Assembly: GCA_045532855.1 (NCBI GenBank)
Contig: JAZSGS010000013.1
Coordinates: forward strand, 15,480 to 79,479
Length of the DNA stretch: 64,000 nucleotides
Origin: Faecousia sp.
Lineage (GTDB): Bacteria; Bacillota; Clostridia; Oscillospirales; Oscillospiraceae
Reading direction: 5' to 3'
This document shows, piece after piece, positions 20,180 to 54,003 of the stretch. The first letter of the stretch is position 1. Each line of letters begins with the position of its first letter. A model generated the notes under the pieces. It had not been told where the DNA came from. It ran no database searches and saw only the letters and a program-made list of their open reading frames with translations. The position numbers and the translations under genes were made by a program.

Positions 20180-20191
20180 AATGATCTCTCC

Positions 20192-23071: not shown

Positions 23072-23127
23072 TGAGTTTTCCTCCTTAATATTTATTCTAA
23101 GCGCACATTGTGCGCGCTTATACGGGG

Positions 23128-24138: not shown

Positions 24139-24154
24139 AATTAAATTCCCCCAC

Positions 24155-33106: not shown

Positions 33107-34138
33107 TTAGCCGTAGATCAGGGACTCGGCGTAACGGGTGGCGATGACGCCCTCGGGCTCGCCGGTCTGCTTGGACTCGGACAGGATCCGCTCGATGGAG
33201 TTGTAGATGTTATCTACCTTCTCCAGAACGGCAGCCTCGTTATAAGGACCGTCTACCTCAGCTGCAGCATTGATAACGCCGCCGCCGTTGATAACGAAGT
33301 CGGGAGCGTAGTAGATGCCGCGAGCCTTCAGTGCCAGACCGGAAGCATCGTCCAGGATCTGGTTGTTAGCAGCACCGGCGACAGCCTTACACTTCAGCTG
33401 GGGAATGGTGGTGGGATTCAGGATAGCGCCCATAGCGTTGGGGGAGAAAATGTCGCACTCCTGGGAGAAGATAGCCTCGGTGGGAACGATGGTTGCACCG
33501 AACTCTTCAACAGCGCGATCAGCAGCAGCCTTATTGCTGCGGTTGGCGATGATCAGCTTTGCGCCGTCATTGTGCAGCAGACGGCACAGATCGTAGCCGA
33601 CCTTGCCCAGGCCCTGGACAGCGATGGTCAGACCTTCCAGGGAGTCCCGGCCCAGCGCAACCTTAGCGGTGGCCTTGATGCCCTGCCAGGTGCCGCGAGC
33701 GGTGAAGGGAGAGGGATCGCCGCTGTTCTGAGGCAGACCGCAGATGTAATTGGTCTTGCGCAGCATAACCAGCGCATCGTCGCAGTCGGTGTTCACATCC
33801 TCAGCGGTGATGTAGTCGCCGCCCAGGTTGTTAACAGCCTCGCCGAAGGCCTCGAACATAGCCTCGGTCTTCATAGAGGGGTCAGCGATGATGACGCCCT
33901 TGCCGCCGCCGTGGGGCAGACCGGCAACTGCGTTCTTGTGGGACATACCTCTGGATAGACGCAGAACATCAAACAGCGCGTCGTCAAAGGATGCGTAGGG
34001 GAACAGCCGGCAGCCGCCGATAGCGGGGCCCAGGTTGGTGTTGTGGACAGCGATGATAGCCTTCAGACCGGCCTTTTCATTGTTGACAAACAGCACTTTC
34101 TCGTGGCGGTATTTGCTCATTTCGGTCATTGCATTCAT
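33107..34138 (-). CDS. Leucine/valine dehydrogenase (Glu/Leu/Phe/Val dehydrogenase family)
   Basis: GPAIGGCR, LRLSRGMSHK, GGGKGVI, YITAEDV, SGDPSPFTA, QGLGKVG, GAANNQ, PDFVINGGG. Confidence 0.9.
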   Translation of the reverse strand: MNAMTEMSKYRHEKVLFVNNEKAGLKAIIAVHNTNLGPAIGGCRLFPYASFDDALFDVLRLSRGMSHKNAVAGLPHGGGKGVIIADPSMKTEAMFEAFGEAVNNLGGDYITAEDVNTDCDDALVMLRKTNYICGLPQNSGDPSPFTARGTWQGIKATAKVALGRDSLEGLTIAVQGLGKVGYDLCRLLHNDGAKLIIANRSNKAAADRAVEEFGATIVPTEAIFSQECDIFSPNAMGAILNPTTIPQLKCKAVAGAANNQILDDASGLALKARGIYYAPDFVINGGGVINAAAEVDGPYNEAAVLEKVDNIYNSIERILSESKQTGEPEGVIATRYAESLIYG

Positions 34139-34169
34139 AAAATTTTCCTCCTTAATTTTTGCAGATGGT

Positions 34170-34709
34170 TTACGCGGTGTATTGTTTGCCCAATGTGAGA
34201 GCCTTCATATTCAGCTCCACAAGGGCGGCTTTGGTGGGAGGCACCAGCTTTTCTACTACGGTGTCTGTGCCATCAAAGGAAAGCTCGGGATGATTCTGCA
34301 GCAGATGACCCATAATGATCATATTTGCCAGCGTGGGGATATGCTGCTCTCTTGCCATAGCGGTGGCGGGAATGTAGAACACCTCCACATCGGTACGTTC
34401 TACCTGGACACCGATCAGGGAAGAATCCACATAGATCTGTCCCCCGGGAACGACGGTATCCACATATTTCTGCAGGGACGGCAGATTCATCGCGATCAGC
34501 ACATCGGGGCTGGTTACGATGGGAGAGCCTACGGGCTGCTCGGATATGATCACATTGCAGTTTGCTGTGCCGCCACGCATTTCCGGGCCGTAGGAAGGCA
34601 GCCAGGAAACCTGCAGCTCTTCCATAAGTCCCTTATACGCCAGGAACTTGCCGGCGAAAAGAATGCCCTGTCCGCCGAAGCCGGCGATCAAAATTTGTGT
34701 CGTTTTCAT
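34170..34709 (-). CDS. 2-oxoacid:ferredoxin oxidoreductase gamma subunit
   Basis: [19 protein letters not shown]. Confidence 0.92.
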
Positions 34710-35464
34710 TTGGCATCCTCCTTTGCAGCGGAGCGATCCTTATAAACGCCGATGGGATAGTAGGGCAGCATATCGCTTTCCACCCATTCCAGCGCTTTCT
34801 GCGGTGTCATACCCCAGTTGGTGGGGCAGGCGGAAACCACCTCAACCAAACTGAAGCCCTTACCCTCGATCTGATTGGTGAAAGCCTTCTTGATCGCCTT
34901 CTTGGCGGCGTTGACGTTCTTCACATTGTTAACGGCAACACGGGCCAAATACTCGGGGCCCTCCAAGCTGGACAGCATTTCGCAGACCTTGATGGGCCAG
35001 CCGCAGTGATTGACATCACGGCCGTAGGGGCTGGTCTGGGTAACCTGACCGGGCAGGCTGGTGGGAGCCATCTGACCGCCGGTCATACCGTAAATGGCGT
35101 TGTTGACGAAGATAACGGTGATGTTTTCGTTTCTGGCAGCGGCGTGGACCGTTTCTGCCATACCGATGGAGGCCAGGTCGCCGTCGCCCTGATAGGTAAA
35201 GACCACATTCTCGGGACGGCAACGCTTGATGCCGGTGGCAACTGCAGGTGCGCGACCGTGAGGGGCTTCGATCATATCGCAGGCGAAATAATCGTATGCC
35301 ATAACGGCACAGCCAACGGGAGCGACACCGATAGCCTTGCCCTCGATGCCCAGTTCGTCCATAACCTCAGCCACCAACCGGTGGATGATGCCGTGGGGAC
35401 AGCCGGGACAGTAGTGGAAGGGGAGGTCGGTCAGGGAGTTCGGTTTCTTAAATACAACTGCCAT
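34706..35464 (-). CDS. 2-oxoacid:ferredoxin oxidoreductase beta (TPP-binding) subunit, Vor type
   Basis: [38 protein letters not shown]. Confidence 0.93.
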
Positions 35465-35466
35465 GA

Positions 35467-36528
35467 TCAGAACACTCCTTTCTCAGCATTGCGAATGCTT
35501 TCCAGCACCTCGTCGGGGCTGGGTATCATACCGCCGCAGCGGTTGCACAGCCCCACAGGTCGTTTGCACTGGGTATACAGGCGGACATCCTCGATCATCT
35601 GACCCATACTCAGCTCCACGCTGATGAAACCCTTGACCTTGTCGGCAGCCTTCAGCAGGGCGTCCTTGGGGAAGGGCCACAGGGTAATGGGACGGATCAG
35701 ACCTACCTTAATGCCCTCCTGCCGGGCGGCAACGATGGCATTCTTGGCAACACGGGAAGCGATACCGAAGGCGACGACACAGATCTCGGCGTCCTCCATC
35801 ATATACTCTTCCCACATAGCTTCGGTTTCTTCGATAGCCTTGTACTTTTCGTACCGCTCGAAATTGGTCTTTTCCAGCGCCTCGGGCTTTAAGTACAGGG
35901 AGTTGACGATGTTATGCTTGCGCTCACAGTTAGTGCCGGTCAACGCCCAGGGTTTTTCGTAATTTTCGATCTCGGCATCTTCAAAAGAGATGGGCTCCAT
36001 CATCTGTCCGATGGTGCCGTCTGCCAGGATCATAGAGGTCATCCGGTATTTGTCTGCCAGGTTGAAGCCCTTAATGGTCAGGCTTGCCATTTCCTGTACA
36101 GAAGCAGGGGCAAGGACGATCATTCTGTAGTCGCCGTGTCCGCCGCCCTTGGTGGCCTGGAAATAGTCGGACTGAGGGGGCTGAATACCGCCCAAGCCGG
36201 GACCGCCACGCTGGACATTGACCACCAGCGCAGGTACATCAGAGCCGGCGATGTAGCTCAAGCCCTCAGCCTTCAGGGAGATTCCGGGGCTACTGGAGGA
36301 GGTCATAACACGCATACCGGCAGCGGCTGCGCCGTAGACCATATTGATGGAAGCGACTTCACTTTCTGCCTGCAGGAAAACGCCGCCGATCTTGGGCATT
36401 TTCTTCGCCATATAGGCAGCAATTTCTGTCTGGGGGGTGATGGGGTATCCGAAGTAATGGCGGCAGCCGGCACGGATGGCGGCTTCAGCGATGGCTTCGT
36501 TGCCCTTCATAAGAATTCTCTGCGCCAT
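35467..36528 (-). CDS. vorB: 2-oxoacid:ferredoxin oxidoreductase alpha subunit (3-methyl-2-oxobutanoate dehydrogenase VorB-type)
   Basis: [43 protein letters not shown]. Confidence 0.88.
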
Positions 36529-36538
36529 CTTTGCCTCC

Positions 36539-36745
36539 TTATTTCTCTCCGGTGATGATGCAGCCCGGGCACATAGTGGCGCAGAATGCACAGCCGATAC
36601 ATTTTTCCATATCGGTCATCACGGCAGGTGAATAGCCTTTGTTGTTGATCTGATCCTCGGCAATGACCAGAAGCTTCTTGGGGCAGGCGGATACACACAG
36701 ACCGCAGCCCTTGCAAAGGTCCGTATTGAATGTAACTTTTGCCAT
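36539..36745 (-). CDS. 2x[4Fe-4S] ferredoxin-like delta subunit
   Basis: CKGCGLCVSACP and CIGCAFCATMCP. Confidence 0.92.
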   Translation of the reverse strand: MAKVTFNTDLCKGCGLCVSACPKKLLVIAEDQINNKGYSPAVMTDMEKCIGCAFCATMCPGCIITGEK

Positions 36746-36779
36746 TTGGATTCCTCCTTTTGGTTATGCGATCAGGAGC

Positions 36780-37463
36780 TTACCGCTTCTGGTCGGGTAG
36801 ATCAAAGTATTTCTCCTGCAAATGCAGGGGGAAAACATTGGGGATATGATCGCTGACTTGGGTTGCAAGGTCAGCGCGAACAGTAGTCATATACAAATTC
36901 AGACCGGAAAGTTCTTTTAGCTTTTCTATATAGGGCACGCTGTCCAAAACCGTCTGTACATCGGTTAGCGGACCTAAATGGGAGTTGTTTACGATGTCCG
37001 TAAAGGCAAGACCGCAGGCATTTTCGATCTCCCGCATCACTTCCAACGCATCCTCCGGCGTTTGTGTCAGGGGACGGTAGCAGTTGGCAACGAAGATCAT
37101 TCGATAGTTGCCTTCCTTGCGGATAAAGGGGACGTACCGACCTAAGGCGTATGCGCCCCGGTCATCGCCGCCGATGTCCATCACGCCAAAGCTGCTGCGA
37201 TCCTCCACCAGCCGGTAGGCTTCTGCCGGCAGGGCAGGCAGGTCAACATTGGAGTTGGCAAACTGGGGGGAGATCAGCTCTACGCCGGCATTTTTCAGCT
37301 GAACAGCGCTGTCAGCGGTGCGAAAGTAGGGATTTACGATGTCCAGGTCTGCAATACAGACCTTTTTGCCCTCGCTTGCCAAATGCAGCGCATAATTTAC
37401 GGCAATATTGGTCTTGCCGCTGCCGTAATGGCCGGCAAACAAAGTAAGGCGTTTGTGGTTCAT
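36780..37463 (-). CDS. Uncharacterised P-loop NTPase in the vor operon
   Basis: GHYGSGKTN Walker A, DLDIVNPYFR, DIGGDDRG. Confidence 0.75.
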   Translation of the reverse strand: MNHKRLTLFAGHYGSGKTNIAVNYALHLASEGKKVCIADLDIVNPYFRTADSAVQLKNAGVELISPQFANSNVDLPALPAEAYRLVEDRSSFGVMDIGGDDRGAYALGRYVPFIRKEGNYRMIFVANCYRPLTQTPEDALEVMREIENACGLAFTDIVNNSHLGPLTDVQTVLDSVPYIEKLKELSGLNLYMTTVRADLATQVSDHIPNVFPLHLQEKYFDLPDQKR

Positions 37464-37466
37464 AAA

Positions 37467-39752
37467 TTACAACTGCTTTCTGATGATCTTGCCGCTGATG
37501 GTCTTGGGAAGGGATTCCTTGAATTCCACGATACGGGGGTATTTGTAGGGAGCGGTTCTGCTCTTGACATATTCCTGGATCTCCTTACGCAGCTCGTCGG
37601 TGCCTTCGGTGCCCTTTACCAGCACGATGCTGGCCTTGACCACCTGACCGCGAACCTCGTCGGGAGCGGCGGAAACGCCACATTCCAAAACATAGGGCAG
37701 CTCCATAATCACATTTTCGATCTCGAAAGGTCCGATCCGGTAGCCGGAGGACTTGATCACATCGTCTACACGGCCAACATACCAGAAGAAGCCGTCCTCA
37801 TCCTTCCACGCCAGATCACCGGTGTGGTAGAAGCCGTCCCGCCAGGTTTCTGCGGTGATCTCGTCGTTGCCCTCATAGCAATAGGCAAGACCGCAGGGCA
37901 GCCCCTTGGAAATATCGATACAGATCTCGCCGGTCTCACCGGACTCCACTTCATTGCCGTCGGCATTCAGCAGCTTAACATTATACAGCGGCACGGGCTT
38001 ACCCATAGCGCCGAATTTGTGGCTGTCGCCGGCCAGGTTGCCGATAATGAGGGTGCTTTCGGACTGACCGAAGCCCTCCATGATCTTCAGACCGGTGGAA
38101 AGCTCAAACTGACGGAACACCTCGGGATTCAGCGCTTCGCCGGCGGTGGATGCGTGCTGGATAGAGGAAAGATCATACTTGCTCAGATCCTGCTTGATCA
38201 GCATCCGGTACATAGTCGGCGGTGCGCAGAAGGTGGTGATGTTGTATTTTGCAAACATAGGCAGGATCTTCTCACCATCGAAGCGGTCAAAGTCGTAGAC
38301 GAAGATACCTGCTTCACACAGCCACTGACCGTAAAGCTTGCCCCAGGAGGACTTTGCCCAACCGGTGTCGGAAATGGTCAGGTGCAGACCGTCGGGGTTG
38401 ACACGGTGCCAGTATTTGGCGGTGATGAAATGTCCCAGAGGATACTTGTAGTTATGGGCAGTCAGCTTGGGATAGCCGGAGGTGCCGGAGGTGAAGAACA
38501 TCAGCATAGGATCGTTGCCGCAGGGGGCATCTTCTGCTCTTGCAAAGTGGGAGCTGAAGAGGGCGTATTCTTCGTTAAAGTCGTGCCAGCCTTCCCGGCT
38601 GCCGTTTACCAAGATCTTATGCTTCAGTCCCGGGCACTTTGCAGCGGCCTCGTCCACTGCGTCGGCGACATTGCCGTCGGCAGTGCAGAGGATGGCGCTG
38701 ACATTACCGGCCTGGAAGCGGTAAGTAAAGTCTTTTTCAAGGAGCTGGTTGGTGGCGGGAATTGCCACAGCGCCCAGTTTGTGCAGAGCCAGAATGGCAA
38801 ACCAGAACTGGTAGTGCCGCTTCAGCACCAGCATCACCCGGTCGCCCCGCTTGATGCCCAGGGACTTAAAGTAGTTTGCTGCTCTTGCAGATTCTTTCTT
38901 CATATCCTGGAAGGTGAAGCGCCGCTCGGTCATATCCTCGGAGATGTGGAGCATAGCCAGCTTTTCCGGCTTGCTGCGACCCAGCGCATCCACCACATCG
39001 AAGGCAAAGTTGAACTTATCCTGGTTCTGGAATGCGATCTGCTCCAGCTTGCCGTCCACCACCGTGGGGGTGATGAAATTGCGGTAGACCCGGGGCTTTT
39101 TGTCCGGAGTCAGGCTCTTGCCGGGGGTTGCCACGGCGGCAGCCTGCTCACCGTCCCGGGCTGCAGAATTGCTCAGAACAAAGGCATAGAATGCGCAGTC
39201 CTCGCCATCCACGGCGATCATACCGTGGGGCGTGGCAGAATCGTAGTAAATACAGTCGCCGGGGTGGAGGATCTCGGTCTTGCTGCCGATCTGGATCCGC
39301 ATCGTACCGGAAATGACGATGTCGCACTCCTGACCTTCGTGGGTAACCAGCTCGATGTCCTCGTATTCCGCGCCGTCCCGGTACTTCAGCTCCATATACA
39401 GGGGCAGACCGATACGGTTGCGGAAGCCGGCTGCCAGGTTGTAGCCGATCATATGGTGCGCTTCCTCGATACGCTGACCGTCGCCCTTGCGGGTGAGGGC
39501 ATAGCTGCGCAGCTTGGGGCTGCTGCCCTCCAGCAGGTCGCCCATATCCACGCCCAGACTCAAGGTGCAGCGGTACAGGAAAGCAATGCTTAAGTTGCGG
39601 TTGCCCGCTTCACATTGCAGATATTCTTCTACGGACACGCCGGTACGGGAAGCCATTTCCTCCGCTGTGAAGCCGTTGACTTCACGCAGCTCCTGGATAC
39701 GCTTGGCGACTTCCTGAATCTTAAAGTCCGTGCCGGTAAATTTCTGTTCCAT
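37467..39752 (-). CDS. XRE-HTH/cupin-acyl-CoA synthetase fusion (Val T-box controlled)
   Basis: N-terminal IQELR..G.T.EEMA HTH, THEGQE...PHGM cupin; AMP-binding FTSGTSGYPK, GFGQSE, YHTGD, PKTISGK. Confidence 0.9.
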   Translation of the reverse strand: MEQKFTGTDFKIQEVAKRIQELREVNGFTAEEMASRTGVSVEEYLQCEAGNRNLSIAFLYRCTLSLGVDMGDLLEGSSPKLRSYALTRKGDGQRIEEAHHMIGYNLAAGFRNRIGLPLYMELKYRDGAEYEDIELVTHEGQECDIVISGTMRIQIGSKTEILHPGDCIYYDSATPHGMIAVDGEDCAFYAFVLSNSAARDGEQAAAVATPGKSLTPDKKPRVYRNFITPTVVDGKLEQIAFQNQDKFNFAFDVVDALGRSKPEKLAMLHISEDMTERRFTFQDMKKESARAANYFKSLGIKRGDRVMLVLKRHYQFWFAILALHKLGAVAIPATNQLLEKDFTYRFQAGNVSAILCTADGNVADAVDEAAAKCPGLKHKILVNGSREGWHDFNEEYALFSSHFARAEDAPCGNDPMLMFFTSGTSGYPKLTAHNYKYPLGHFITAKYWHRVNPDGLHLTISDTGWAKSSWGKLYGQWLCEAGIFVYDFDRFDGEKILPMFAKYNITTFCAPPTMYRMLIKQDLSKYDLSSIQHASTAGEALNPEVFRQFELSTGLKIMEGFGQSESTLIIGNLAGDSHKFGAMGKPVPLYNVKLLNADGNEVESGETGEICIDISKGLPCGLAYCYEGNDEITAETWRDGFYHTGDLAWKDEDGFFWYVGRVDDVIKSSGYRIGPFEIENVIMELPYVLECGVSAAPDEVRGQVVKASIVLVKGTEGTDELRKEIQEYVKSRTAPYKYPRIVEFKESLPKTISGKIIRKQL

Positions 39753-39777
39753 TAGTGAAACCTCCAAGATTGAGACA

Positions 39778-40056
39778 AAAAAGCAAAACAGCCCGTCTCA
39801 AAGATAGATTCCTTGAGACGAGCTGCGAATCACAACCCGCGGTACCACTCAAATTGCACCTGCCTTGGGGGCAGATACCACTCATTGGGTGCCAACACAC
39901 CCTAAGCACTGACGCAGCTGACACGGGGAGGCTCTACTTGCGTTCGCGTTCTTCCTCCCAGCTCAGGAGGGACAAGCAATCATTCCCGCCATGGCTTGCA
40001 CCGACCGCCATTTCTCTGCAGGCGCAGGATTTGAAAGCTTTTCTCCATCATAGCCT
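39778..40056 (-). ncRNA. T-box riboswitch, Val (GUC) specifier
   Basis: Minus strand: GCTATGA GA-motif, AGAGA, GGTGCAA, GTC-C-CTCC-T-GAGC (codon 39971-39973), TTGAGTGGTACCGCG, terminator CGTCTCAA...TTGAGACG plus U tract. Confidence 0.9.
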
Positions 40057-40067
40057 TTATGTATGGA

Positions 40068-40096
40068 ATCATACCATTGCTGTCTTAATTTGTCAA
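40068..40096 (-). promoter_or_regulatory. Sigma-A promoter for the Val T-box leader
   Basis: TTGACA-17 bp-TATGAT with extended TG. Confidence 0.75.
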
Positions 40097-40108
40097 TAAA
40101 TTTGTGGA

Positions 40109-42376
40109 TTAAAGTTTGTTACGCTGGATCTTGCCGGAGATGGTCTTGGGCAATTCGTCCCGGAATACCACGATCCGGGGATACTTGTAAGGTGCGGTGT
40201 GCTGTTTGACATAGTTCTGGATCTCTTTTTTCAGCTCCTCTGTGCCTTCCACGCCGGGAACAAGCACGATGCTGGCCTTGACCACCTGACCGCGGACCTC
40301 GTCGGGGGCAGCGGAAACGCCGCACTCCAGAACATAGGGCAGCTCCATAATGGTGGACTCGATCTCGAAGGGTCCGATCCGGTAGCCGGAGGACTTGATA
40401 ACATCGTCAGCACGACCCACATACCAGTAGTAGCCATCCTCGTCTCGCCAGGCAACATCGCCGGTGTGATACATACCGTCGTGCCATACGCTGTCGGTGG
40501 CTTCCTGGTTGCGGTAGTAGCCCAGGAATACACCGCAGGTGGGCTTGGGATCGGTGCGGATGACGATCTCGCCGTTGACACCGTCTTCCACGCTCTTGCC
40601 GTCGGAATCCACGATGTCGATGCCGTAGCCGGGAACAGGTTTGCCCATTGCGCCGGGCTTGATGTTGGCGCCGTACAGGTTGGCGATGCCCAGGGTCATC
40701 TCGGTCTGACCGAAGCCCTCGTGGATGCGAAGACCCGTAGCCTTTTCAAACTGATAGAACACCTCCGGATTCAGCGCCTCGCCGGCGGTGGTGGCATGAT
40801 GGATGGAGGAAAGGTCATACTTGCTCAGATCCTGCTTGATCAGCATCCGGTACATCGTGGGAGGTGCGCAGAAGGTAGTAATATTGTACTTGGCAAACAT
40901 AGGCAGGATCTTTTCTGCATCAAAGCGGTCAAAATCGTAGGTAAAGACCGCGCCCTCGCACAGCCACTGACCGTAGAGCTTACCCCAGAGAGCTTTGCCC
41001 CAGCCGGTTTCAGAAATGGTAAAGTGCAATCCGTCCCGCTCACATAGATGCCAGTATTTGGCGGTAACATAATGACCCAGAGCATACTTGTAGGAATGGG
41101 TAGCCATTTTGGGATAGCCGGTGGTGCCGGAGGTGAACAGCATCAGCATCGGATCGCTGCCGCAGGGAGCGTCCTCGCCACGGGTATAGCGGCGGCTGAA
41201 GAGCTTATATTCTTCGTTATAGTCGTGCCAGCCCTCCCGGCTGCCGCCGACCAGAATTTTGGTCAGATTGATGTTTGCGGTCTTCTCAGCCAGCTCGACC
41301 TGCTCGGCGGTGTTGCCGTCGGCGGTACACAGTACGGCACTGACATCGGCAGCCTGGAAGCGGTAAACAAAGTCGTGCTCCATCAGCTGATTGGTAGCGG
41401 GGATGGCGATAGCGCCCAGCTTGTGCAGACCGAGGATGGCAAACCAGAACTGGTAGTGCCGTTTCAGCACCAGCATGACCCGGTCGCCCCGTTTGATGCC
41501 CAGAGATTTGAAATAGTTTGCACTCTGAGAGGAGGCATCCTTCATATCCTTAAAGGTGAAGCGCCGTTCGGTCATATCGCCCCCAATGTGGACCATAGCC
41601 AGCTTATCCGGCTCTCTTCTTGCGATGGCATCAACGGTGTCGAACGCGAAGTTATAATTTTCTTCATCAGAGAAGGTCATACCCTGGAATACGCCGTTTT
41701 CATCCTCCTGGGCGTTGACAAAACGGTTGCACAGCAGATTCTGTTCCCGCTTGCCCTTTTGGACCTCGCTGATGTACATAGGCTGATCGGTAGCATCAGA
41801 TGCCATGATCATAGACAGGAATACGCAGTCCTCGCCGTCCACAGCGATCATACCGTGGGGGGTGGAGGATCTGTAGAAGATGGAGTCGCCCTCCCGGAGC
41901 ACTTCCTCGTGGTCGCCGATCTTGATGCGCATAGCACCCTTGACCACCAGATCAAATTCCTGACCGGTGTGGGTGGTGGTGTGGATGGGCTTATTCTGCA
42001 GCTCCTCAGAATACTGGTAGGTTACCCAGTAGGGGGTAGCCAGCTTCTTGCGGAACATAGGCGCCATATCCTGAATGGTGATGCCGTCCTCGCTGGCAGT
42101 TACCAGACCTTTGCCCCGGCGGGTAACGGTGTAGCCGCTGAGCTTTGCGCTGCGGCCTTCCAGCAGAACGGTGATCTCAATGCCAAATACCTTGGCACAT
42201 TTATGCAGGAAAGAAAAGGGAAGATCCACGGTGCCGGATTCATACTGGCGGTAAATTTCTTCCGCTACCTCCGTCTGCTCGGCCATTTTCTGTGTGCTGT
42301 AGCCCAGAATTTCCCGCATACCTCTGATACGAGTTGCGATGTCCATTAGTTGGGTAGAGGTATTTGTGTTGCTCAT
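40109..42376 (-). CDS. Second XRE-HTH/cupin-acyl-CoA synthetase fusion (Ile T-box controlled)
   Basis: Paralog of 37467-39752: HTH, THTGQE...PHGM, FTSGTTGYPK, GFGQTE, YHTGD, PKTISGK. Confidence 0.9.
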   Translation of the reverse strand: MSNTNTSTQLMDIATRIRGMREILGYSTQKMAEQTEVAEEIYRQYESGTVDLPFSFLHKCAKVFGIEITVLLEGRSAKLSGYTVTRRGKGLVTASEDGITIQDMAPMFRKKLATPYWVTYQYSEELQNKPIHTTTHTGQEFDLVVKGAMRIKIGDHEEVLREGDSIFYRSSTPHGMIAVDGEDCVFLSMIMASDATDQPMYISEVQKGKREQNLLCNRFVNAQEDENGVFQGMTFSDEENYNFAFDTVDAIARREPDKLAMVHIGGDMTERRFTFKDMKDASSQSANYFKSLGIKRGDRVMLVLKRHYQFWFAILGLHKLGAIAIPATNQLMEHDFVYRFQAADVSAVLCTADGNTAEQVELAEKTANINLTKILVGGSREGWHDYNEEYKLFSRRYTRGEDAPCGSDPMLMLFTSGTTGYPKMATHSYKYALGHYVTAKYWHLCERDGLHFTISETGWGKALWGKLYGQWLCEGAVFTYDFDRFDAEKILPMFAKYNITTFCAPPTMYRMLIKQDLSKYDLSSIHHATTAGEALNPEVFYQFEKATGLRIHEGFGQTEMTLGIANLYGANIKPGAMGKPVPGYGIDIVDSDGKSVEDGVNGEIVIRTDPKPTCGVFLGYYRNQEATDSVWHDGMYHTGDVAWRDEDGYYWYVGRADDVIKSSGYRIGPFEIESTIMELPYVLECGVSAAPDEVRGQVVKASIVLVPGVEGTEELKKEIQNYVKQHTAPYKYPRIVVFRDELPKTISGKIQRNKL

Positions 42377-42407
42377 AGGGGATCTCCTTTCTGAAACAAA
42401 TGAAAAT

Positions 42408-42656
42408 AAAAAACGCCTCAAGCCAAAGCTTGAGACGAGAATAAACCCGCGGTACCACTCAAATTGCGGCTTGCGCCGCCACTCATCAGACTCTAACAAG
42501 TCCTATCCTTTAACGCAGGCATACGGGAGAACTTACTGAAAAACCGTTCAGCTCTCCGGCTCGGAAGGGATTGGTACTTAGATCAGGCACTACCGGCTCA
42601 CACCAATCGCCGGCTCTCTGAAAGATGCTTTGATCTGACCGTCTTCGTCAAAGCTT
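42408..42656 (-). ncRNA. T-box riboswitch, Ile (AUC) specifier
   Basis: Minus strand: GCTTTGA, AGAGA, GGTGTGA, ATC-C-CTTC-C-GAGC (codon 42569-42571), TTGAGTGGTACCGCG, terminator CGTCTCAAGC...GCTTGAGGCG plus U tract. Confidence 0.92.
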
Positions 42657-42671
42657 TTTGCTATTGCACAT

Positions 42672-42700
42672 ACTATAGCATGTCCGCGAGAAAAAGTCAA
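42672..42700 (-). promoter_or_regulatory. Sigma-A promoter for the Ile T-box leader
   Basis: TTGACT-17 bp-TATAGT with extended TG. Confidence 0.7.
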
Positions 42701-42768
42701 ATGTATTTGTGCACAAAACAAAAATATTTTTCGCGCCGTTTTTTGTCTATGTTTTTCATAAAAAAATA

Positions 42769-42797
42769 TTGACAAACGGAAAGGGATATGCTTAAAT
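42769..42797 (+). promoter_or_regulatory. Sigma-A promoter for the Leu T-box leader
   Basis: TTGACA-17 bp-TTAAAT with extended TG. Confidence 0.55.
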
Positions 42798-42818
42798 GAC
42801 TACATTATAATAATAAAA

Positions 42819-43081
42819 GACGCTGAAGGAAAATCTGCCCTTTCGTATACTGCTCCAGAGAGCCGGCGGTTGGTGTGAGCCGGTGCAAAAGGAATTGGCA
42901 GTCTGATTCCCGAGTTGATCTTGTGAACGCCGTTGGCTGGTAATGAGATACGGGCGCTCCCGTTACAGAGCTAGGGCTTGCTGGAGCCCGATGAGTGATT
43001 CTCCCCTTGGGAGAATAAGCAGGGTGGTACCGCGAATTTATCAATTCGTCCCTGAGATCAGATGATCTCAGGGATTTTTTT
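42819..43081 (+). ncRNA. T-box riboswitch, Leu (CUG) specifier
   Basis: GCTGA, AGAGA, GGTGTGA, CTG-A-TTCC-C-GAG (codon 42903-42905), AGGGTGGTACCGCG (43021-43034), terminator TCCCTGAGATC...GATCTCAGGGA plus U tract. Confidence 0.9.
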
Positions 43082-43098
43082 ATGAAGGAGTGCTTATT

Positions 43099-44511
43099 AT
43101 GAGACAGATCCGAATCAGTGATATGACGATGAAGCAGGCAGCAGAAGGCTTCAGCCTGTCTTTTAAGGAAAAGATCGAGCTGGCAAAGCTGTTGGATAAG
43201 TTAGGTGTGACTGTGATCGAGTTGGAGGGCATTGAGAACCCCCGGATCGACGCGCTGCGGATCAAGTCTATTGCGGCAGCCGTAAACGGCAGTGTGGTTG
43301 CTGTTCCGGTGCAGCTGAATGCAGACAGCATTACCCAGACCTGGAACGCGCTGAAAGAGGCGAAAAAGCCCCGTCTGCAGGTCTGCGCGCCTGTCAGCTC
43401 TGTGCAGATGGAGTATCTGTTCCATAAAAAGCCGGATGCTATGCTTGCCGCCATTTCCCAAACGGTGGCGGACTGCCGTAAGGTTTGTGAAAATGTGGAA
43501 TTTATTGCCGACGATGCTACCCGCAGTGATGGCGCATTCTTGAATCAGGCCATCGCCGCTGCTGTGGAAGCCGGCGCCACCACCGTTACCCTGTGCGACA
43601 CCGCCGGCACCATGATGCCCGACGAGTTTGCTGCGTTTGTAGGCCAGGTTTGCAAGGATAATACTTGCCTGGCAAATATCAATGTGGGCGTTGCCTGTGT
43701 CGATAGCCTGGCAATGGCTGATTCCTGCGCCATCGCAGCTGTCCGGCAGGGCGCTGTGGAGGTCAAGGCGGCGGCTTACCCCATCAACACCGCAGCGTTG
43801 GCCAATGTTGCCCGCGTTATCAGCACCCGGGGCGAAAGCTTTGGCGCGACTTGCTCCGTCAATAGCACCCAGCTGAGCCGCACCGTAGAGCAGATCGCCT
43901 GGATGTGCCAGACCGGTCGGAAGAAGACCTCCCCCTTTGATAACGGCGTCCAGGACGAGGACTCCGGCGTGTATTTGACGGTTCACGATGATATTGGCGG
44001 CGTGATCAAGGCTGTGGAGCGTTTGGGTTATGACCTTTCTGAGGACGATGCTCAGAAGGTTTTCGAGGCATTTCAGAGCATCGCTGCCAAGAAGGAACGG
44101 GTGAGCGCCAAGGAGCTGGATGCCATCGTGGCGTCCGCTGCTATGCAGGTGCCCCCTACCTTTGTGCTGAAAACCTATGTGATCACCGCCGGCAACACCG
44201 TTTCTGCCACCGCTCACCTTACATTAAATAAGGATGGCGCGGCATTGGAGGGCGTCAGCATCGGCGACGGTCCTATCGACGCGGCATTTTTGGCCATTGA
44301 GCAGATCACCGGCTGCCATTACGAGCTGGACGATTTCCAGATCCAGGCGGTTACCGAAGGACGGGAGGCTATGGGCCAGACGGTGGTAAAGCTGCGTTCC
44401 GGCGGCAAGGTCTACTCCGGCAGAGGCATCTCCACCGACATTGTGGGCGCAAGTATCCACGCCTATATCAGCGCGCTGAATAAAATCGTCTACGAGGAGG
44501 AAGCGGTATGA
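43099..44511 (+). CDS. LeuA (2-isopropylmalate synthase)-like protein with degenerate active site and intact C-terminal regulatory domain
   Basis: DATRSD, CDTAG, GDGPIDA, AVTEG, GISTDIV..S..AY..ALN are LeuA-like; DTTLRDGEQ and HCHND are absent. Confidence 0.8.
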   Translation: MRQIRISDMTMKQAAEGFSLSFKEKIELAKLLDKLGVTVIELEGIENPRIDALRIKSIAAAVNGSVVAVPVQLNADSITQTWNALKEAKKPRLQVCAPVSSVQMEYLFHKKPDAMLAAISQTVADCRKVCENVEFIADDATRSDGAFLNQAIAAAVEAGATTVTLCDTAGTMMPDEFAAFVGQVCKDNTCLANINVGVACVDSLAMADSCAIAAVRQGAVEVKAAAYPINTAALANVARVISTRGESFGATCSVNSTQLSRTVEQIAWMCQTGRKKTSPFDNGVQDEDSGVYLTVHDDIGGVIKAVERLGYDLSEDDAQKVFEAFQSIAAKKERVSAKELDAIVASAAMQVPPTFVLKTYVITAGNTVSATAHLTLNKDGAALEGVSIGDGPIDAAFLAIEQITGCHYELDDFQIQAVTEGREAMGQTVVKLRSGGKVYSGRGISTDIVGASIHAYISALNKIVYEEEAV

Positions 44512-47021
44512 GACTTTCCTTTTCTACCCGGGGCTGGACAGATCTTTCCTGGGATGAAATGATGCAGACCGCCCTGGAAATGGGCTTTACCGGCATCGAG
44601 GTCTATAATCTGCCCAAATTCGATCCTATGCTGGATCGGAGCGGTCCTTTCCATAAATATCAGGCTGCGGCTACTGTGCGGCAGCTGCGGGAGAAGAAGC
44701 TGCAGATCCCTTGCTTTGACACCTCCTATGACCTTTCTCAGGACGATAGCTGCGCGCCTTACCTGCAGTCCCTGCTGGAGGTGGCCCACAACACCCAAGT
44801 GCCCTATGTGGCGGCTGTTGCGCTGAGCGATAACGAGCCCCAGGTGAATGAGAATCTGCAGAAGCTGCTGCCCCAGGCAGAAAAGCTGGGGGTAACACTG
44901 CTGCTGAAAACCAGCGGTATTTACGCCGATACCGGCAGATTGCGCAATCTTTTGAACAATTTTGCCAGCGACAATTTGGGCGCGCTGTGGGATGTACACC
45001 ACACCTACCGGGATTTCGGCGAAAGCGGCGATACCACCATTAAAAATTTGGGCAGTTATGTCTGCCACGTCCATTTGCGGGATTCTGACGATCAGGGCGC
45101 ATACCAGGTGATCGGCGAGGGAACGATGCCCATTGCCGATGTGATGCGGGCGCTGTCCTCGGTCAATTATGACGGATTCCTCTCTCTAGAGTGGAAGCCG
45201 GATTGGATGGAGGAGCTGCAGGATCGGGACATCATCTTTCCGTATTATGTAAACTATATGAGCCGGTTTGAAAGCCCCAGAAGCCAGAAGAAATCGCTGT
45301 ATTTCAACCACGATGGCTCCGGTCAGTATATCTGGAAAAAGGACGAGCTCATCGACCTGACCTTCTCTCAGGTGCTGGATCGGGTAACGGAGGAGTTCCC
45401 GGATCAGTACGCTTTCAAGTACACCACGCTGGACTATACCCGCACCTATCGGGAGTTTAAGAAGGATGTGGACGATTTTGCCCGGGCGCTGGTGTCTATG
45501 GGCATTAAGGCAGGCAGCAAGGTTGCCATCTGGGCTACCAATGTACCGGCCTGGTATATCACTTTTTGGGCCACCACCAAGATCGGCGCAGTGCTGGTAA
45601 CGGTGAATACCGCCTACAAGATCCACGAGGCGGAGTACCTGCTGCGCCAGTCCGATACCCATACTTTGGTGATGATCGAAAGCTGTCTGGACTCTGATTA
45701 CCGTGGCATTATCAACGAGCTTTGCCCTGAATTGGCAACCACCAAGGCAGGCGAGCCGCTGCACTGCAAGCGGCTGCCCTTCCTGCGCAATGTTATTACC
45801 GTGGGCTTCAAGCAGCCGGGCAGCCTGACCTTCGACGAGGCGATGGCACGCAAGGAGCTGATCAGCTCCGAGCAGGTGGCGAGAATGGCCGCTGCAGTGC
45901 GTCCCAACGACGTTTGCAATATGCAGTACACCTCCGGCACGACCGGTTTCCCGAAAGGTGTTATGTTAACCCACTACAACGTGGTCAACAACGGCAAATG
46001 TATCGGCGACCGAATGGGCTTGTCTACCGCAGACCGTATGATGATCCAGGTGCCGATGTTCCATTGCTTCGGTATGGTGCTGTCTATGACCTCGTCTATG
46101 ACCCACGGCGCAACGCTGTGTCCGCTGCCTTATTTCTCTGCCAAGTCCTCTTTGGCTTGTATCAATCAGGAGCGGATCACCTGCTTCAACGGCGTACCCA
46201 CGATGTTTATCGCTATGTTCAATCATCCGGATTACCGGAAGACGGATTTTTCCTATATGCGCACCGGCATTATGGCGGGCGCAGGCTGTCCTCCGGAGCT
46301 GATGCGCCGGGCTGCGCAGCCGGATGAGATGAATATGACCGGCATCGTCAGCGTTTACGGTCAGACGGAATCTGCCCCCGGTTCGACTATGTCCGCCTGG
46401 ACAGATCCGCTGGATGTGCGCACCGATACTGTCGGTTATGCCTTCCCCCACGTGCAGTGTAAGATCATCGATCCGGAAACCGGTCTTGAGGTTGCCGACG
46501 GCGTGAACGGCGAGTTCTGCTCTCGCGGCTATAACACGATGAAGGGCTACTATAAGATGCCCCAGGCCACCAAGGATACGGTGGATGCAGAGGGTTGGCT
46601 CCACTCCGGCGATCTGGCTTGCCGGGATAGCGCAGGAAACTACCGCATTACCGGACGGCTGAAGGATATGATCATTCGTGGCGGTGAGAACATTTACCCC
46701 AAGGAGATCGAGGAATTCATCTACACCCACCCCCAGACCAAGGATGTTCAGGTCATCGGCGTGCCGGATAAGAAGTACGGCGAGGAGATTATGGCCTGCA
46801 TCGTGCTGAAAGAGCCAGGCAGCGTAACGGTGGAGGAGATGACCGACTACATCAAGGGCAGTATGGCGCGGCATAAGGTGCCGAAGTATATTGAGTTTGT
46901 AGATGCCTTCCCCATGAATGCGGCAGGCAAGGTGCTCAAGTACAAGATGCGCGAGGATGCCGCCAAGCGGCTGGGCTTAGTCGGCGACGGCGCCGACACC
47001 GCCGGCAACCCGGGAAAGTAA
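44508..47021 (+). CDS. Xylose-isomerase-like TIM barrel fused to acyl-CoA synthetase
   Basis: N-terminal GFTGIE, LWDVHH, HVHLRD, GEG, SLEW; C-terminal YTSGTTGFPKG, FHCFG, YGQTE, LHSGD, IIRGGENIYP, GKVLK; ATGA overlap with the upstream gene. Confidence 0.88.
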   Translation: MRLSFSTRGWTDLSWDEMMQTALEMGFTGIEVYNLPKFDPMLDRSGPFHKYQAAATVRQLREKKLQIPCFDTSYDLSQDDSCAPYLQSLLEVAHNTQVPYVAAVALSDNEPQVNENLQKLLPQAEKLGVTLLLKTSGIYADTGRLRNLLNNFASDNLGALWDVHHTYRDFGESGDTTIKNLGSYVCHVHLRDSDDQGAYQVIGEGTMPIADVMRALSSVNYDGFLSLEWKPDWMEELQDRDIIFPYYVNYMSRFESPRSQKKSLYFNHDGSGQYIWKKDELIDLTFSQVLDRVTEEFPDQYAFKYTTLDYTRTYREFKKDVDDFARALVSMGIKAGSKVAIWATNVPAWYITFWATTKIGAVLVTVNTAYKIHEAEYLLRQSDTHTLVMIESCLDSDYRGIINELCPELATTKAGEPLHCKRLPFLRNVITVGFKQPGSLTFDEAMARKELISSEQVARMAAAVRPNDVCNMQYTSGTTGFPKGVMLTHYNVVNNGKCIGDRMGLSTADRMMIQVPMFHCFGMVLSMTSSMTHGATLCPLPYFSAKSSLACINQERITCFNGVPTMFIAMFNHPDYRKTDFSYMRTGIMAGAGCPPELMRRAAQPDEMNMTGIVSVYGQTESAPGSTMSAWTDPLDVRTDTVGYAFPHVQCKIIDPETGLEVADGVNGEFCSRGYNTMKGYYKMPQATKDTVDAEGWLHSGDLACRDSAGNYRITGRLKDMIIRGGENIYPKEIEEFIYTHPQTKDVQVIGVPDKKYGEEIMACIVLKEPGSVTVEEMTDYIKGSMARHKVPKYIEFVDAFPMNAAGKVLKYKMREDAAKRLGLVGDGADTAGNPGK

Positions 47022-47023
47022 AT

Positions 47024-47055
47024 AAAAAAAGGATGCGCCTAGCGCATCCTTTTTT
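47024..47055. terminator. Bidirectional terminator
   Basis: AAAAAAAGGATGCGC-CTA-GCGCATCCTTTTTT. Confidence 0.8.
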
Positions 47056-47171
47056 CTTGCCTCCCTCTTTGAGGGAGGTGGCAAAAATCTTTGATTTTTG
47101 ACGGAGGGAGTTAAACTCCCCCAGTCTTTTTGCGTTGCAAAAAGACAGCCCCCTCAAAGAGGGGGCCGAGG
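47056..47171 (+). repeat. Repeat family A, copy 5
   Basis: CTTGCCTCCCTCTTTGAGGGAGGTGG...GACAGCCCCCTCAAAGAGGGGGCCGAGG. Confidence 0.9.
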
Positions 47172-47185
47172 TGTGTCCTGTGATT

Positions 47186-48403
47186 TTACCGAATTCCGTA
47201 CTTTTCGATGATATAGTCCATATCCTTATCGCCTCTGCCGGAGAGGTTGATGAGGACAGAGCCCTTGCCCAGCTTCTTGGCAAGCTTCATACCGTAGGCG
47301 ACGGCGTGGGCGCTTTCGATGGCGGGGATGATACCCTCCAGACGAGCCAGTTCATAGAAAGCGTCGATGGTCTCGTCGTCGTTGATCACATCATACTTGA
47401 CCCGGCCGCAATCCCGCAGGAATGCGTGCTCCGGACCGGAGGAGGGGTAGTCAAGACCGCTGGCAACGGAGTAAACGGGCGCAGGATCGCCGTTTTCGTC
47501 CTTCAGCATCACGCTGTTAAAGCCGTGCATAACACCCTCGGTGCCGTACTGCAGGCTGGCGGCGTGGTCGCCCAAAGCTGTGCCGCGTCCCAGAGGCTCA
47601 ATGCCGTAAATATCCACAGGATCGTTCAGGAAACCGGAGAAGAAGCCGGCGGCATTGGAGCCACCGCCAACACAGGCCACGATGGCATCCGGCAGATGAC
47701 CGGTCATATCCAGGAATTGTGCCCGAGCCTCTTCGCCCACCACATGCTGGAAGTCCCGAACCATCATGGGGAAGGGGTGAGGGCCGACTACAGATCCGAT
47801 GCAGTAAATGCAGTCCTTATATTCCTTGGCATAGGCGGCGAAGGCGGCATCCACAGCTTCCTTCAGGGTCTGCTGTCCCTCGGTAACCTCTACCACATTG
47901 GCACCCAGGATCTTCATTCGCGCCACATTGGGGGCTTGCTTTTTGATGTCCTCTGCACCCATATAGATATCGCATTCCAGACCGAAATAGGCGGCAGCGG
48001 TTGCCATTGCAACACCGTGCTGACCTGCGCCGGTCTCGGCGATGACCTTCTTTTTACCCATGTATTTCGCCAGCAGAACTTCGCCCATACAGTGATTCAG
48101 CTTGTGGGCGCCGGTATGGTTTAAGTCCTCCCGCTTGACATACAGCTGCACATTGCCCAGCTTGTTGGACAGCCGCTCCAGATGGGATACCGGGGTAGGA
48201 CGGCCCTGGAACTCCTTGCGGATACGGCGCAGCTCGGCGATGAATTTCCGGGATTGAGCGATGGTAAAATATGCCTCGCTGATTTCCGCCATAGCGGCCT
48301 TCAGCTCGTCGCTGACATATACGCCGCCGTAACGGCCGAAATAGCCCTTATCATCGGGATAATGGCGGAAATAGGTTTCAAAATCCACATTGTTCAGAAT
48401 CAT
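47186..48403 (-). CDS. trpB: Tryptophan synthase beta chain (stand-alone)
   Basis: [40 protein letters not shown]. Confidence 0.95.
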
Positions 48404-48423
48404 AATATGTACCTCCTAAAAAT

Positions 48424-48685
48424 GAAAAGCCCTTGACAGAATACTGTCAAGGGCGAATTTATATCCGCGGTGCCACCTTGATTCATAGGAAGATCCTATG
48501 CGCTTGACGGGATACCGATATATCCCCGGCAACTGACGCATGCCCACGCGTTGCAGAATACTCTGTGAAGATTCACATTTGACTGCACCCTCAGCGGCCC
48601 ATTTGACAACTTGTTTCCTGCCTGACTCTCAGCACCACAGACTCTCTGTATGGGCATCATTGCCTTTATCCCCGCCTCAACGGTT
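48424..48685 (-). ncRNA. T-box riboswitch, Trp (UGG) specifier
   Basis: Minus strand: AGAGA, GCTGAGA, TGG-G-CCGC-T-GAGG (codon 48599-48601), AAGGTGGCACCGCG (C suits a G discriminator), terminator GCCCTTGACAG...CTGTCAAGGGC. Confidence 0.92.
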
Positions 48686-48703
48686 TGCTATGAAATTAAA
48701 TGT

Positions 48704-48732
48704 ATTATAGTATACGGACACTTGTTTGTCAA
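48704..48732 (-). promoter_or_regulatory. Sigma-A promoter for the trpB leader
   Basis: TTGACA-17 bp-TATAAT. Confidence 0.85.
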
Positions 48733-48783
48733 GTGCTTACAAAAGAAACATTTTGTGCGTTTTTTACAATGCCGGAGGGGGTT

Positions 48784-48867
48784 ATGAATAGAAAACCATA
48801 AAATATACAAAAAAGATGAATATTTATGAAAATATCTATTGACAACCATAATTAATAGATGTATAAT
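48784..48867 (+). promoter_or_regulatory. argG promoter with possible ARG boxes
   Basis: TTGACA (48839-48844)-17 bp-TATAAT (48862-48867); ATGAATAGAAAACCAT and ATGAATATTTATGAA upstream resemble ArgR boxes. Confidence 0.65.
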
Positions 48868-48900
48868 CCGGGTAAACCAATGAATACACGGAGGCATACC

Positions 48901-50121
48901 ATGAATAAAGAAAACATTAAGAAGGTCGTTCTGGCCTATTCCGGCGGCCTGGACACATCTATTATTATCCCCTGGCTGAAGGAAAATTACAATAACTGCG
49001 AAGTCATCGCCGTTGCCGGCAACGTCGGTCAGGCTGACGAGCTGGAGGGTCTGGAAGCCAAGGCTATCGCCACCGGCGCATCCAAGCTGATCGTTGCCGA
49101 CCTGGTGGACGAGATGGTAGACGAGATCATCATTCCCGCTATGAAGATGGATGCCAAGTACGAGACCTATCTGCTGGGCACTGCATTTGCCCGTCCCGTC
49201 ATCGGCAAAAGATTAGCGGAGATCGCTCTGGCTGAGGGCGCTGATGCCATTTGCCACGGCGCAACCGGCAAGGGCAACGACCAGGTTCGTTTCGAGCTGG
49301 CTATCAAGCGTTTCGCTCCCGAGATGAAGATCATCGCTCCATGGCGTGAGTGGGATATCAAGTCCCGTGAAGAGGAGATCGAGTATGCGGAGGCACGGAA
49401 CATCCCCCTGAAGATCAGCCGTGAGACCAACTACTCCAAGGATAAGAACCTGTGGCACCTGAGCCACGAGGGTCTGGATCTGGAAGATCCCGCCAACGAG
49501 CCTCAGTACGACAAGCCCGGTTTCCTGGAGATGGGTGTTTCCCCCATGCAGGCACCCGATGTTCCTACATATGTTACCATCGACTTTGAGGCTGGCGCAC
49601 CCGTTGCTCTGAACGGTGAGAAGATGAAGGCCTCCAAGATCATTGAGAAGCTGAACGAAGTTGGCGGCGCCAACGGCATCGGCATCATCGACATCGTGGA
49701 AAACCGTCTGGTGGGTATGAAGGACCGCGGCGTATACGAGACCCCCGGCGGCACCATTTTGTACTTTGCCCACAATCAGCTGGAAATGCTGACCGTGGAT
49801 AAGGATACTCTGCACGTTAAGCAGAAGCTGGCTGTGGACTACGCTGACCTGATCTACAACGGCAAGTGGTACTCTCCTCTGCAGGAGGCTCTGACCGCTT
49901 TTGCCAACGAGTCCAACAAGTTCGTTACCGGCTCTGTAAAGCTGAAGCTGTACAAGGGCAACATCATCCCCGCCGGTACTACCTCTCCCTACTCTCTGTA
50001 CTCCGAGAGCCTGGTTACCTTCGACGAAAGCGATTACGACCAGAAGCAGGCTGAGGGCTTCATCAATCTGTGGGGCCTGCCCACCCAGGTGCAGGCACTG
50101 CGGGAGCAGGGTAAGCTGTAA
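48901..50121 (+). CDS. argG: Argininosuccinate synthase
   Basis: [39 protein letters not shown]. Confidence 0.98.
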
Positions 50122-50122
50122 T

Positions 50123-51496: not shown

Positions 51497-51518
51497 TTTA
51501 TTTTAGGAGGAAACTATT

Positions 51519-52346: not shown

Positions 52347-52442
52347 AAAAGAAAAGGTGAACACAAAGGCTTAGTCTGTGTGGCTGCGGAGGGGAGACCC
52401 TCCGCAGCCTGCAAGCACTAGGCCTTTGCATTGGTTAAGAAT

Positions 52443-53150: not shown

Positions 53151-53151
53151 T

Positions 53152-53991: not shown

Positions 53992-54003
53992 TCGAGGTGT
54001 AAT

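Follow-up and report, generated by a model that had tools for sequence, protein, structure and literature searches.

We analyzed a stretch of 64,000 nucleotides from a Faecousia sp. contig (JAZSGS010000013.1, positions 15,480 to 79,479; the whole stretch is hereafter called the window), in which the gene at 43099..44511 on the + strand encodes a 470 aa relative of the isopropylmalate synthase LeuA. Reading of the open reading frames, Pfam matches, alignments and an AlphaFold2 (AF2) model identified this protein as a catalytically dead LeuA paralogue, named dLeuA here, and it works with the acyl-CoA ligase encoded immediately downstream in a leucine-starvation regulon. An original prediction, made from the nucleotide sequence alone, had noted that the protein has lost the catalytic motifs of LeuA and kept its regulatory domain, and had interpreted it as a leucine-sensing subunit of the ligase. 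The observation was confirmed in the present analysis and the interpretation was partly supported: that dLeuA would be the leucine-sensing subunit of an isovalerate-activating ligase is the reading that we favor, with slightly less than even confidence.

The dLeuA frame runs uninterrupted over 470 codons, with AAGGAG at 43085-43090 at a spacing of 8 nt from the ATG, and its stop overlaps the start of the ligase gene in the ATGA at 44508-44511. The intact frame with a good ribosome-binding site and the overlap, all of them claimed at first, could be read directly in the sequence. The protein is made of a degenerate DRE-TIM barrel (residues 1-265), a shortened linker (266-334) and a conserved PF08502 regulatory domain (335-467). 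Pfam placed HMGL-like (PF00682) on residues 15-225 (E 5e-27) and LeuA_dimer (PF08502) on residues 335-463 (E 4.6e-31), the latter over profile positions 2-130 of 131. All the NCBIfam LeuA models matched dLeuA, and all of them far under their curated cut-offs: the best model, NF002086, reached 295 bits for a cut-off of 532 and TIGR00973 reached 256 for a cut-off of 599. The AF2 model had a predicted local distance difference test (pLDDT) value of 92.8, with disorder confined to the shortened linker (275-288), and its barrel superposed on the LeuA structure 3ewb at 1.7 A (Foldseek). The DRE-TIM (HMGL-like) barrel fold of LeuA is, according to this model, present in dLeuA.

We compared the motifs of dLeuA with the solved LeuA barrels 3ewb, 3rmj and 3eeg and with 19 canonical LeuAs of the same bacterial family, across which the compared motifs were invariant or nearly so. 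Where canonical LeuA has DTTLRDGEQ, dLeuA has DMTMKQAAEG and the metal-binding Asp is gone; HCH(N/D)D is replaced by ACVDS, with the loss of the HxH pair; and a shorter AAYP-IN stands in place of NGIGERAGN, a deletion of 4 residues. EFSAED reads EFIADD, in which the catalytic Glu is changed to D at a position that is variable in the dLeuA family, and PDTVGY reads CDTAGT. The predicted loss of the DRE-TIM motif, of HCHND and of GERAGN is borne out by this alignment. A further loss, not pointed out before, was a deletion of about 28 residues of accessory subdomain I (AFAHESGIHQHG...TYEI), a segment that in LeuA is the catalytic His and Tyr loop (AFxHESGIHQxG...YE; PF22617). No Pfam match to PF22617 was found in dLeuA, and that family was carried only by clusters more distant from it. 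In the LeuA of M. tuberculosis, subdomain I contains His379 and Tyr410, and their substitution disrupts the leucine response (PMC9860122).

The metal Asp, the HxH pair, GERAGN and the subdomain-I loop were missing in 104 cluster representatives, as well as in 20 orthologues from the same family and 20 from other families of the class. The metal-ligand positions, invariant in 18-19 canonical LeuAs, were variable in these 104 representatives and 40 orthologues. The original prediction had named close homologues keeping the motifs as the finding that would speak against it; these were looked for among the orthologues and were not found. Since every catalytic element examined was missing in all the orthologues inspected, dLeuA, judged on its sequence, cannot be a canonical isopropylmalate or citramalate synthase. 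dLeuA belongs to the LeuA superfamily by descent and fold, and since it shows none of the catalytic hallmarks of membership, it is not to be filed as an isopropylmalate or citramalate synthase.

In contrast with the catalytic positions, the C-terminal allosteric domain was preserved, as the original prediction had stated, and is conserved more than any other part of the protein. The GDGPIDA and GxGxSTDI motifs of the PF08502 domain are kept in dLeuA, and G389-D-G-P-I-D-A, G441-x-G-x-S-T-D-I, A459, N461 and K462 were invariant or nearly so across the 104 representatives. This pattern of regulatory motifs versus catalytic positions was repeated in the 20 orthologues from other families, down to 35% identity. 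Mean pairwise identity among dLeuAs was 0.66 in the regulatory domain, 0.44 in the barrel and 0.38 in the linker, whereas it was 0.64 in the barrel, 0.62 in the linker and 0.45 in the regulatory domain among the 19 canonical LeuAs of the same bacterial family. These identities indicate that constraint is inverted in dLeuA in comparison with canonical LeuA and is centred on the regulatory domain, and they point to purifying selection on dLeuA, strongest on this domain. In M. tuberculosis LeuA, the Leu carboxylate is held between two helix N-termini (PMC11057210), and the two invariant motifs of dLeuA may be the counterparts of these N-termini. When the PDB sequences were searched with the dLeuA regulatory domain alone (phmmer), no LeuA or CimA entry was among the matches. 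By analogy with LeuA, dLeuA probably binds leucine.

The barrel, once remodelled, might also still catalyse a reaction of the pathway, on isovaleryl-CoA or 2-ketoisocaproate, by a new chemistry that needs no metal; we consider this quite improbable. Its fold is predicted with high confidence and it retains several nearly invariant residues (D8, T10, F22, P98, S100, E105, Y106, K111, D139, R142, D167 and P174), as an active enzyme would. However, S100, E105, Y106, K111, D139, R142 and D167 are common to canonical LeuA and look structural, F22 being the exception among those checked. No new conserved polar cluster was observed, all the former catalytic positions are variable within the dLeuA family, and the salvage route described below is complete without a further enzyme.

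dLeuA is widespread. We obtained at least thousands of dLeuA matches in a 90%-identity protein collection, the best 120 of which were nearly all 470 aa long, and more than 100 clusters of 455-480 aa in a 50%-identity library. Full-length dLeuA was present in 42 of the 201 sampled genomes of the bacterial family, and dLeuA in 78 of the 399 genomes sampled across the class, these 78 carriers coming from about twenty families; the closest named orthologues were Oscillospiraceae (NCBI naming). The catalytic losses were seen in all the orthologues inspected across the class, at identities of 35-94%. The dLeuA pattern is far beyond chance, since intact and conserved copies occur in hundreds of genomes. 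In a maximum-likelihood tree, 20 dLeuAs and 18 canonical LeuAs were split by one long branch of about 1.36 changes per site with 100/100 support. This topology is consistent with a single old origin of dLeuA and does not prove it, because the tree is unrooted.

These data also bear on whether dLeuA is a decaying leuA pseudogene left behind by the loss of the leucine pathway. The carriers are almost always without leuA and mostly without leuC, and a few orthologues have one in-frame stop, as decay would have it; yet a frame of about 470 aa is intact in hundreds of genomes from 35% to 94% identity, the regulatory domain has diverged less than in functional LeuA, and the ribosome-binding site, the T-box described below and the translational coupling are retained. 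Recent decay was rejected on these conservation data, which effectively refute the pseudogene explanation. The single in-frame stops (TGA, TAG or TAA) occur in five orthologues (G126, G081, G568, G390 and G541) and could be sequencing errors or occasional pseudogenes.

The gene immediately downstream of dLeuA (44508..47021, +) encodes a xylose-isomerase-like TIM barrel (residues ~1-255) fused to an AMP-forming acyl-CoA ligase (~280-837), with the Pfam matches AP_endonuc_2, AMP-binding and AMP-binding_C. The best NCBIfam match of this TIM-ligase was PRK12583, under its cut-off, and its presumed substrate is a branched-chain acid, most likely isovalerate. The TIM-ligase was present in all 42 dLeuA carriers of the family sample and stood directly downstream of dLeuA in 39 of them; in the 3 remaining carriers, the two genes were on separate contigs. 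The same order, dLeuA then TIM-ligase with gaps of a few bases, was observed at every one of 20 loci taken from other families of the class, and an overlap of the dLeuA stop with the ligase start (4-bp ATGA) was common among the loci. A co-occurrence with the TIM-ligase fusion, which the original prediction had proposed to examine, was found as direct pairing in both sets of genomes. Identities to the proteins of the window were 68-86% for the ligase part, 28-73% for the TIM domain and 35-73% for dLeuA. The conserved gene order indicates that the coupling of dLeuA to the TIM-ligase gene is tight and ancient. Some dLeuAs have a shortened linker, in G066 and G174, and the form of G174 (L062 6887-8404, +) stands directly before the TIM-ligase. 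One sampled locus, in G011, has no ligase after dLeuA: the dLeuA (L047 6977-8404, +), which still has DTTLRESEQ and HCKDN and is less degenerate than most dLeuAs, is followed by an unrelated 245-aa open reading frame (8503-9240, +), the contig ends soon after, and the ligase is on another contig (L063).

A predicted structure of the complex had been proposed as a way to examine the pairing. Our model covered dLeuA and the TIM domain of the ligase, and obtained a score of 0.32 compared to 0.01 for the best control, with a contact agreement of at least 53% between runs and a partner pLDDT of at least 83. In the calibration, the mark was passed by 58 of 80 solved complexes and by 2 of 110 mismatched pairs; scores of 0.60 or under among these passes were obtained by only 7 of the 80 solved complexes and by both passing mismatches, and a pass of this kind signals a false pairing more often than a true one, except where the pairing was likely beforehand. 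The modelled complex gives weak backing for a contact between dLeuA and the TIM domain. We also compared distances within both proteins. The divergence of dLeuA correlated more closely with that of the TIM domain (r 0.91; partial 0.84 given the AMP part) than with that of the AMP part of the ligase (r 0.73; partial 0.39), and the dLeuA barrel distance correlated with the TIM distance (r 0.86); these figures are descriptive only, given the relatedness of the sequences and the narrow dynamic range of the ligase part. Such correlations hint that dLeuA touches the TIM domain.

Upstream of dLeuA, a Leu T-box leader with the specifier CUG, a terminator hairpin and a T-run occupies 42814..43081 (+). 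RF00230 matched 42814-43056 with 118.7 bits for a gathering score of 93, and the terminator hairpin CCCTGAGATC/GATCTCAGGG at 43050-43073 precedes the T-run, which ends at 43081; the T-box that had been claimed above dLeuA was found again by Rfam. A T-box was present upstream of dLeuA in the window and in 8 of the 9 related loci scanned. In nine orthologous leaders aligned with the window, the CU of the specifier was invariant and its third base was G or C, which gives a Leu codon in every aligned leader. On these sequence grounds, the dLeuA-ligase operon is assigned to a Leu T-box regulon.

The genes that adjoin this operon suggest the pathway in which it works. A 2-oxoacid:ferredoxin oxidoreductase (alpha, beta and gamma genes), a Leu/Val-type amino-acid dehydrogenase and two further ligases under T-box control are encoded next to it, in divergent orientation, and the locus is predicted to encode a complete route from branched-chain acid to acyl-CoA, 2-keto acid and amino acid. 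In the source genome (1.45 Mb, 82% complete), leuA, leuB and leuCD were not found. Its other HMGL-like genes are citrate-synthase-like and oxaloacetate-decarboxylase-like, and its only Iso_dh and aconitase matches adjoin the citrate-synthase-like gene, a group that looks like a tricarboxylic acid (TCA) branch. A non-canonical isopropylmalate synthase replacing LeuA was considered and rejected, because this genome shows no leuB or leuCD and the catalytic elements are all gone. Of the 42 full-length dLeuA carriers of the family sample, only 1 also had canonical LeuA. A match to TIGR00170 (leuC) was obtained in 9 of the 42 carriers, at least 3 of these in frames of aconitase length, and in 108 of the 159 other genomes of the sample, which may include some aconitases; these counts are approximate, LeuC and aconitase being split by frame length, and they are not independent, because the genomes are related. 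TIGR00170 stayed under its cut-off throughout the bacterial family, because the family uses a short archaeal-type LeuC. Overall, dLeuA carriers appear to depend on branched-chain fermentation acids.

We propose the following mechanism. dLeuA would be a non-catalytic descendant of isopropylmalate synthase acting with the immediately downstream ligase, which would activate a branched-chain acid, most likely isovalerate, to its acyl-CoA. The 2-oxoacid:ferredoxin oxidoreductase would then convert the acyl-CoA to 2-ketoisocaproate by reductive carboxylation, and the Leu/Val-type dehydrogenase would aminate 2-ketoisocaproate to leucine. Uncharged tRNA-Leu would switch on the two-gene operon through the T-box. 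dLeuA would dimerize via its conserved regulatory domains and bind leucine there, and the leucine signal would be transmitted through the degenerate barrel, which is the allosteric receiver in LeuA, to the ligase and probably to its N-terminal TIM domain; when leucine is plentiful, salvage would stop. In this scheme, leucine binding, ligase binding, the inhibitory effect and isovalerate as substrate are what we infer. In its full form, in which dLeuA senses leucine and exerts feedback inhibition in trans on the enzyme that opens a widespread, as yet undescribed salvage route from isovalerate to leucine in gut and rumen Clostridia, the proposal is tentative, and we would not yet call it probable.

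Several observations weigh against this proposal. Leucine control is already given by the T-box, and a second sensor is therefore not logically required. The ligand of dLeuA could be Ile, because PF08502 binds Ile in CimA and Leu in LeuA (PMC13381585), or it could be another molecule. The TIM-ligase is commoner than dLeuA (61 versus about 42-46 of the 201 genomes), and no dLeuA gene was found in 14 stretches fetched around sister-clade TIM-ligases (N-termini like MKLAFSTLGCPD), two of which reach less than 1 kb upstream of the ligase; canonical LeuA is present in several of the genomes with such a sister-clade ligase. In G151, the sister-clade ligase, without dLeuA, is also located behind a Leu (CUC) T-box. 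Because of this sister clade, with one member under a Leu T-box, dLeuA is in principle dispensable for the TIM-ligase. Truncated forms also exist: in G142, a barrel-only dLeuA without PF08502 (L061 8126-9124, -) overlaps the ligase start, and in G113, a short form of 343 aa (L066 6191-7222, +) stands directly before the TIM-ligase, which suggests that the barrel has a role of its own. A fused dLeuA-ligase protein was looked for among the longer forms and none was found, a search that is weak evidence. Finally, the correlation of distances may only reflect a constraint that is relaxed in both proteins, or the narrow range over which the slowly evolving AMP part varies.

The sister clade without dLeuA, the truncated variants and a degeneration of the TIM domain keep alive the explanation that dLeuA is an obligate structural or activating subunit. 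The set of TIM metal ligands, E/D/H/E, was complete in 13 of 13 aligned sister-clade ligases. In 11 of the 20 dLeuA-linked ligases, including that of the window (LLLKTSG; TIM at 44508-45323 in the window, the others in loci L050-L067), the first metal-ligand Glu was replaced by Lys, and the other three metal positions varied in several dLeuA-linked ligases. Since the metal site is degenerate in the linked clade and intact in the sister clade, the presence of dLeuA seems to go with a loss of catalysis in the TIM domain as well. The TIM model had a pLDDT of 90.6 and resembles ketose 3-epimerases, UlaE and AsbF at 13-19% identity, a level that implies no specific function. With a structural subunit, the dead barrel would dock on the degenerate TIM domain and serve folding, oligomerisation, activity or the hand-over of acyl-CoA to the oxidoreductase, and the regulatory domain would be mainly dimer-forming. 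The strict gene pairing with translational coupling, the metal-site degeneration restricted to the dLeuA-linked clade, the barrel-only form of G142 and the barrel-TIM distance correlation are what such a subunit would lead one to expect, and the modelled complex agrees with it weakly. On the other hand, the most conserved part of dLeuA is by far the ligand-binding regulatory domain, including both helix-N-terminal loops, near-invariant Gly-rich loops are rarely needed for dimerisation alone, and the barrel, supposed to be the docking element, evolves fast. We regard a structural or activating role as unlikely, while keeping it among the serious alternatives to a leucine-sensing subunit.

The difference in PF08502 specificity between LeuA and CimA also raises the possibility that dLeuA senses another ligand (2-ketoisocaproate, isoleucine, valine or an acyl-CoA) or acts on another target (the oxidoreductase, the dehydrogenase or a transporter). 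M. tuberculosis LeuA was crystallised with ketoisocaproate (3hps), and the oxidoreductase genes often adjoin dLeuA. However, the constant neighbour of dLeuA is the ligase, many loci being without an oxidoreductase within the stretch fetched, the specifier of the T-box is always Leu, and the metal site that holds the keto acid in LeuA is gone. Another ligand or target thus appears rather improbable, and leucine and the ligase remain our preferred ligand and target.

The closest known system is LeuA itself (EC 2.3.3.13; TIGR00973/NF002086; 3ewb, 3rmj, 3eeg; full-length M. tuberculosis 1sr9/3fig). dLeuA is alike in domain order, in the GDGPIDA and GxGxSTDI regulatory motifs and in its superposable barrel, and a Leu T-box is found on many leuA genes, as on dLeuA. 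In contrast, dLeuA is without the metal ligands, GERAGN, the catalytic Glu and the subdomain-I His/Tyr loop, falls under all the curated cut-offs, has an acyl-CoA ligase as partner and no leuBCD, and shows the inverted constraint. A dead paralogue that confers amino-acid sensitivity is known in histidine biosynthesis, in which HisZ, a dead histidyl-tRNA-synthetase paralogue, makes the ATP phosphoribosyltransferase HisG sensitive to histidine. Like HisZ, dLeuA is a paralogue of an active enzyme in which catalytic residues were lost and purifying selection continued; it comes from the same amino-acid system, appears to retain the amino-acid site, and is proposed to exert end-product control on another enzyme. 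This likeness is an analogy only: the dLeuA fold is unrelated, complex and allostery are proposals for dLeuA, and its target would be a salvage ligase and not a de novo enzyme. The regulatory (LA) domain of CimA, also PF08502, works in isolation as an Ile recognition element (PMC13381585); such a domain is therefore able to sense alone, and may do so with a ligand other than leucine. In CimA the domain regulates, in cis, an enzyme that is active, whereas the dLeuA domain would act in trans on another protein. The chemistry of the route, from acid to acyl-CoA, 2-keto acid and amino acid, is that of the MbcS-type synthetases and of the rumen reductive carboxylation to Val, Ile and Leu, but the Leu-linked ligase belongs to another subfamily (PRK12583-like), with a TIM domain and a dLeuA partner. 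No accessory protein like dLeuA was described for rumen reductive carboxylation in the searchable literature. No description of dLeuA was found in the literature on isovalerate/leucine reductive carboxylation, isopropylmalate synthase pseudoenzymes, T-box and LiCMS, and a Geobacter paper mentions only a normal leuA T-box.

It had been predicted that automated annotation would mislabel dLeuA as leuA. This was the case in JGI/IMG, where two members are named '2-isopropylmalate synthase', and not in NCBI, where the name is 'hypothetical protein'; ESM Atlas clusters of dLeuA are named by domain or as 'family protein'. With the IMG label, the first step of de novo leucine synthesis would be wrongly scored as present in metabolic reconstructions, and dLeuA is found in about one fifth of the genomes sampled from the class; many of these carriers are anaerobes of the gut or rumen. 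If the proposed role is true, dLeuA would be a testable case of an allosteric enzyme recycled as a regulatory subunit upon pathway replacement, and would be a control point of a gut cross-feeding route between branched-chain acids and amino acids. It would also be the first LeuA allosteric domain regulating a different enzyme and a second HisZ-like case of a dead paralogue used as allosteric subunit. In addition, the dLeuA regulatory domain could then serve as a leucine recognition module.

Around the dLeuA operon, trpB stands alone beside the locus (47186-48403, -). A T-box had been claimed upstream of this gene, and none was detected at the Rfam gathering threshold in a scan of 36000-54000. 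The divergent operon or operons at 33107..42660 (-) carry T-boxes, two HTH (helix-turn-helix)-cupin-acyl-CoA synthetases, a P-loop protein, the 2-oxoacid:ferredoxin oxidoreductase and the dehydrogenase. A first T-box of this divergent group was identified by Rfam at 42428-42660 (-), and another one is located between the two HTH-cupin-ligase genes at 39811-40060 (-), with 80.2 bits (E 1e-17); a default Rfam scan misses the latter because its score is under the gathering score of 93. The two tandem paralogous HTH-cupin-acyl-CoA synthetases (37467-42499, -) have as best match NF047394 (MbcS, methylbutyryl-CoA synthetase), under its cut-off. All three ligases of the locus have an N-terminal add-on, which might be a sensor. 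The P-loop protein of 227 aa (36780-37463, -), ParA/CbiA-like by weak matches, is encoded between the ligase and oxidoreductase genes, a position that is conserved in many related loci. Lastly, an HMGL protein that resembles homocitrate and Re-citrate synthases and keeps its motifs intact is encoded on contig C7 of G000 (~18800-24400; L001, L024-L026), together with a GntR regulator, an aconitase of 646 aa and an isocitrate-dehydrogenase-like gene; this cluster is probably the oxidative TCA branch to 2-oxoglutarate.

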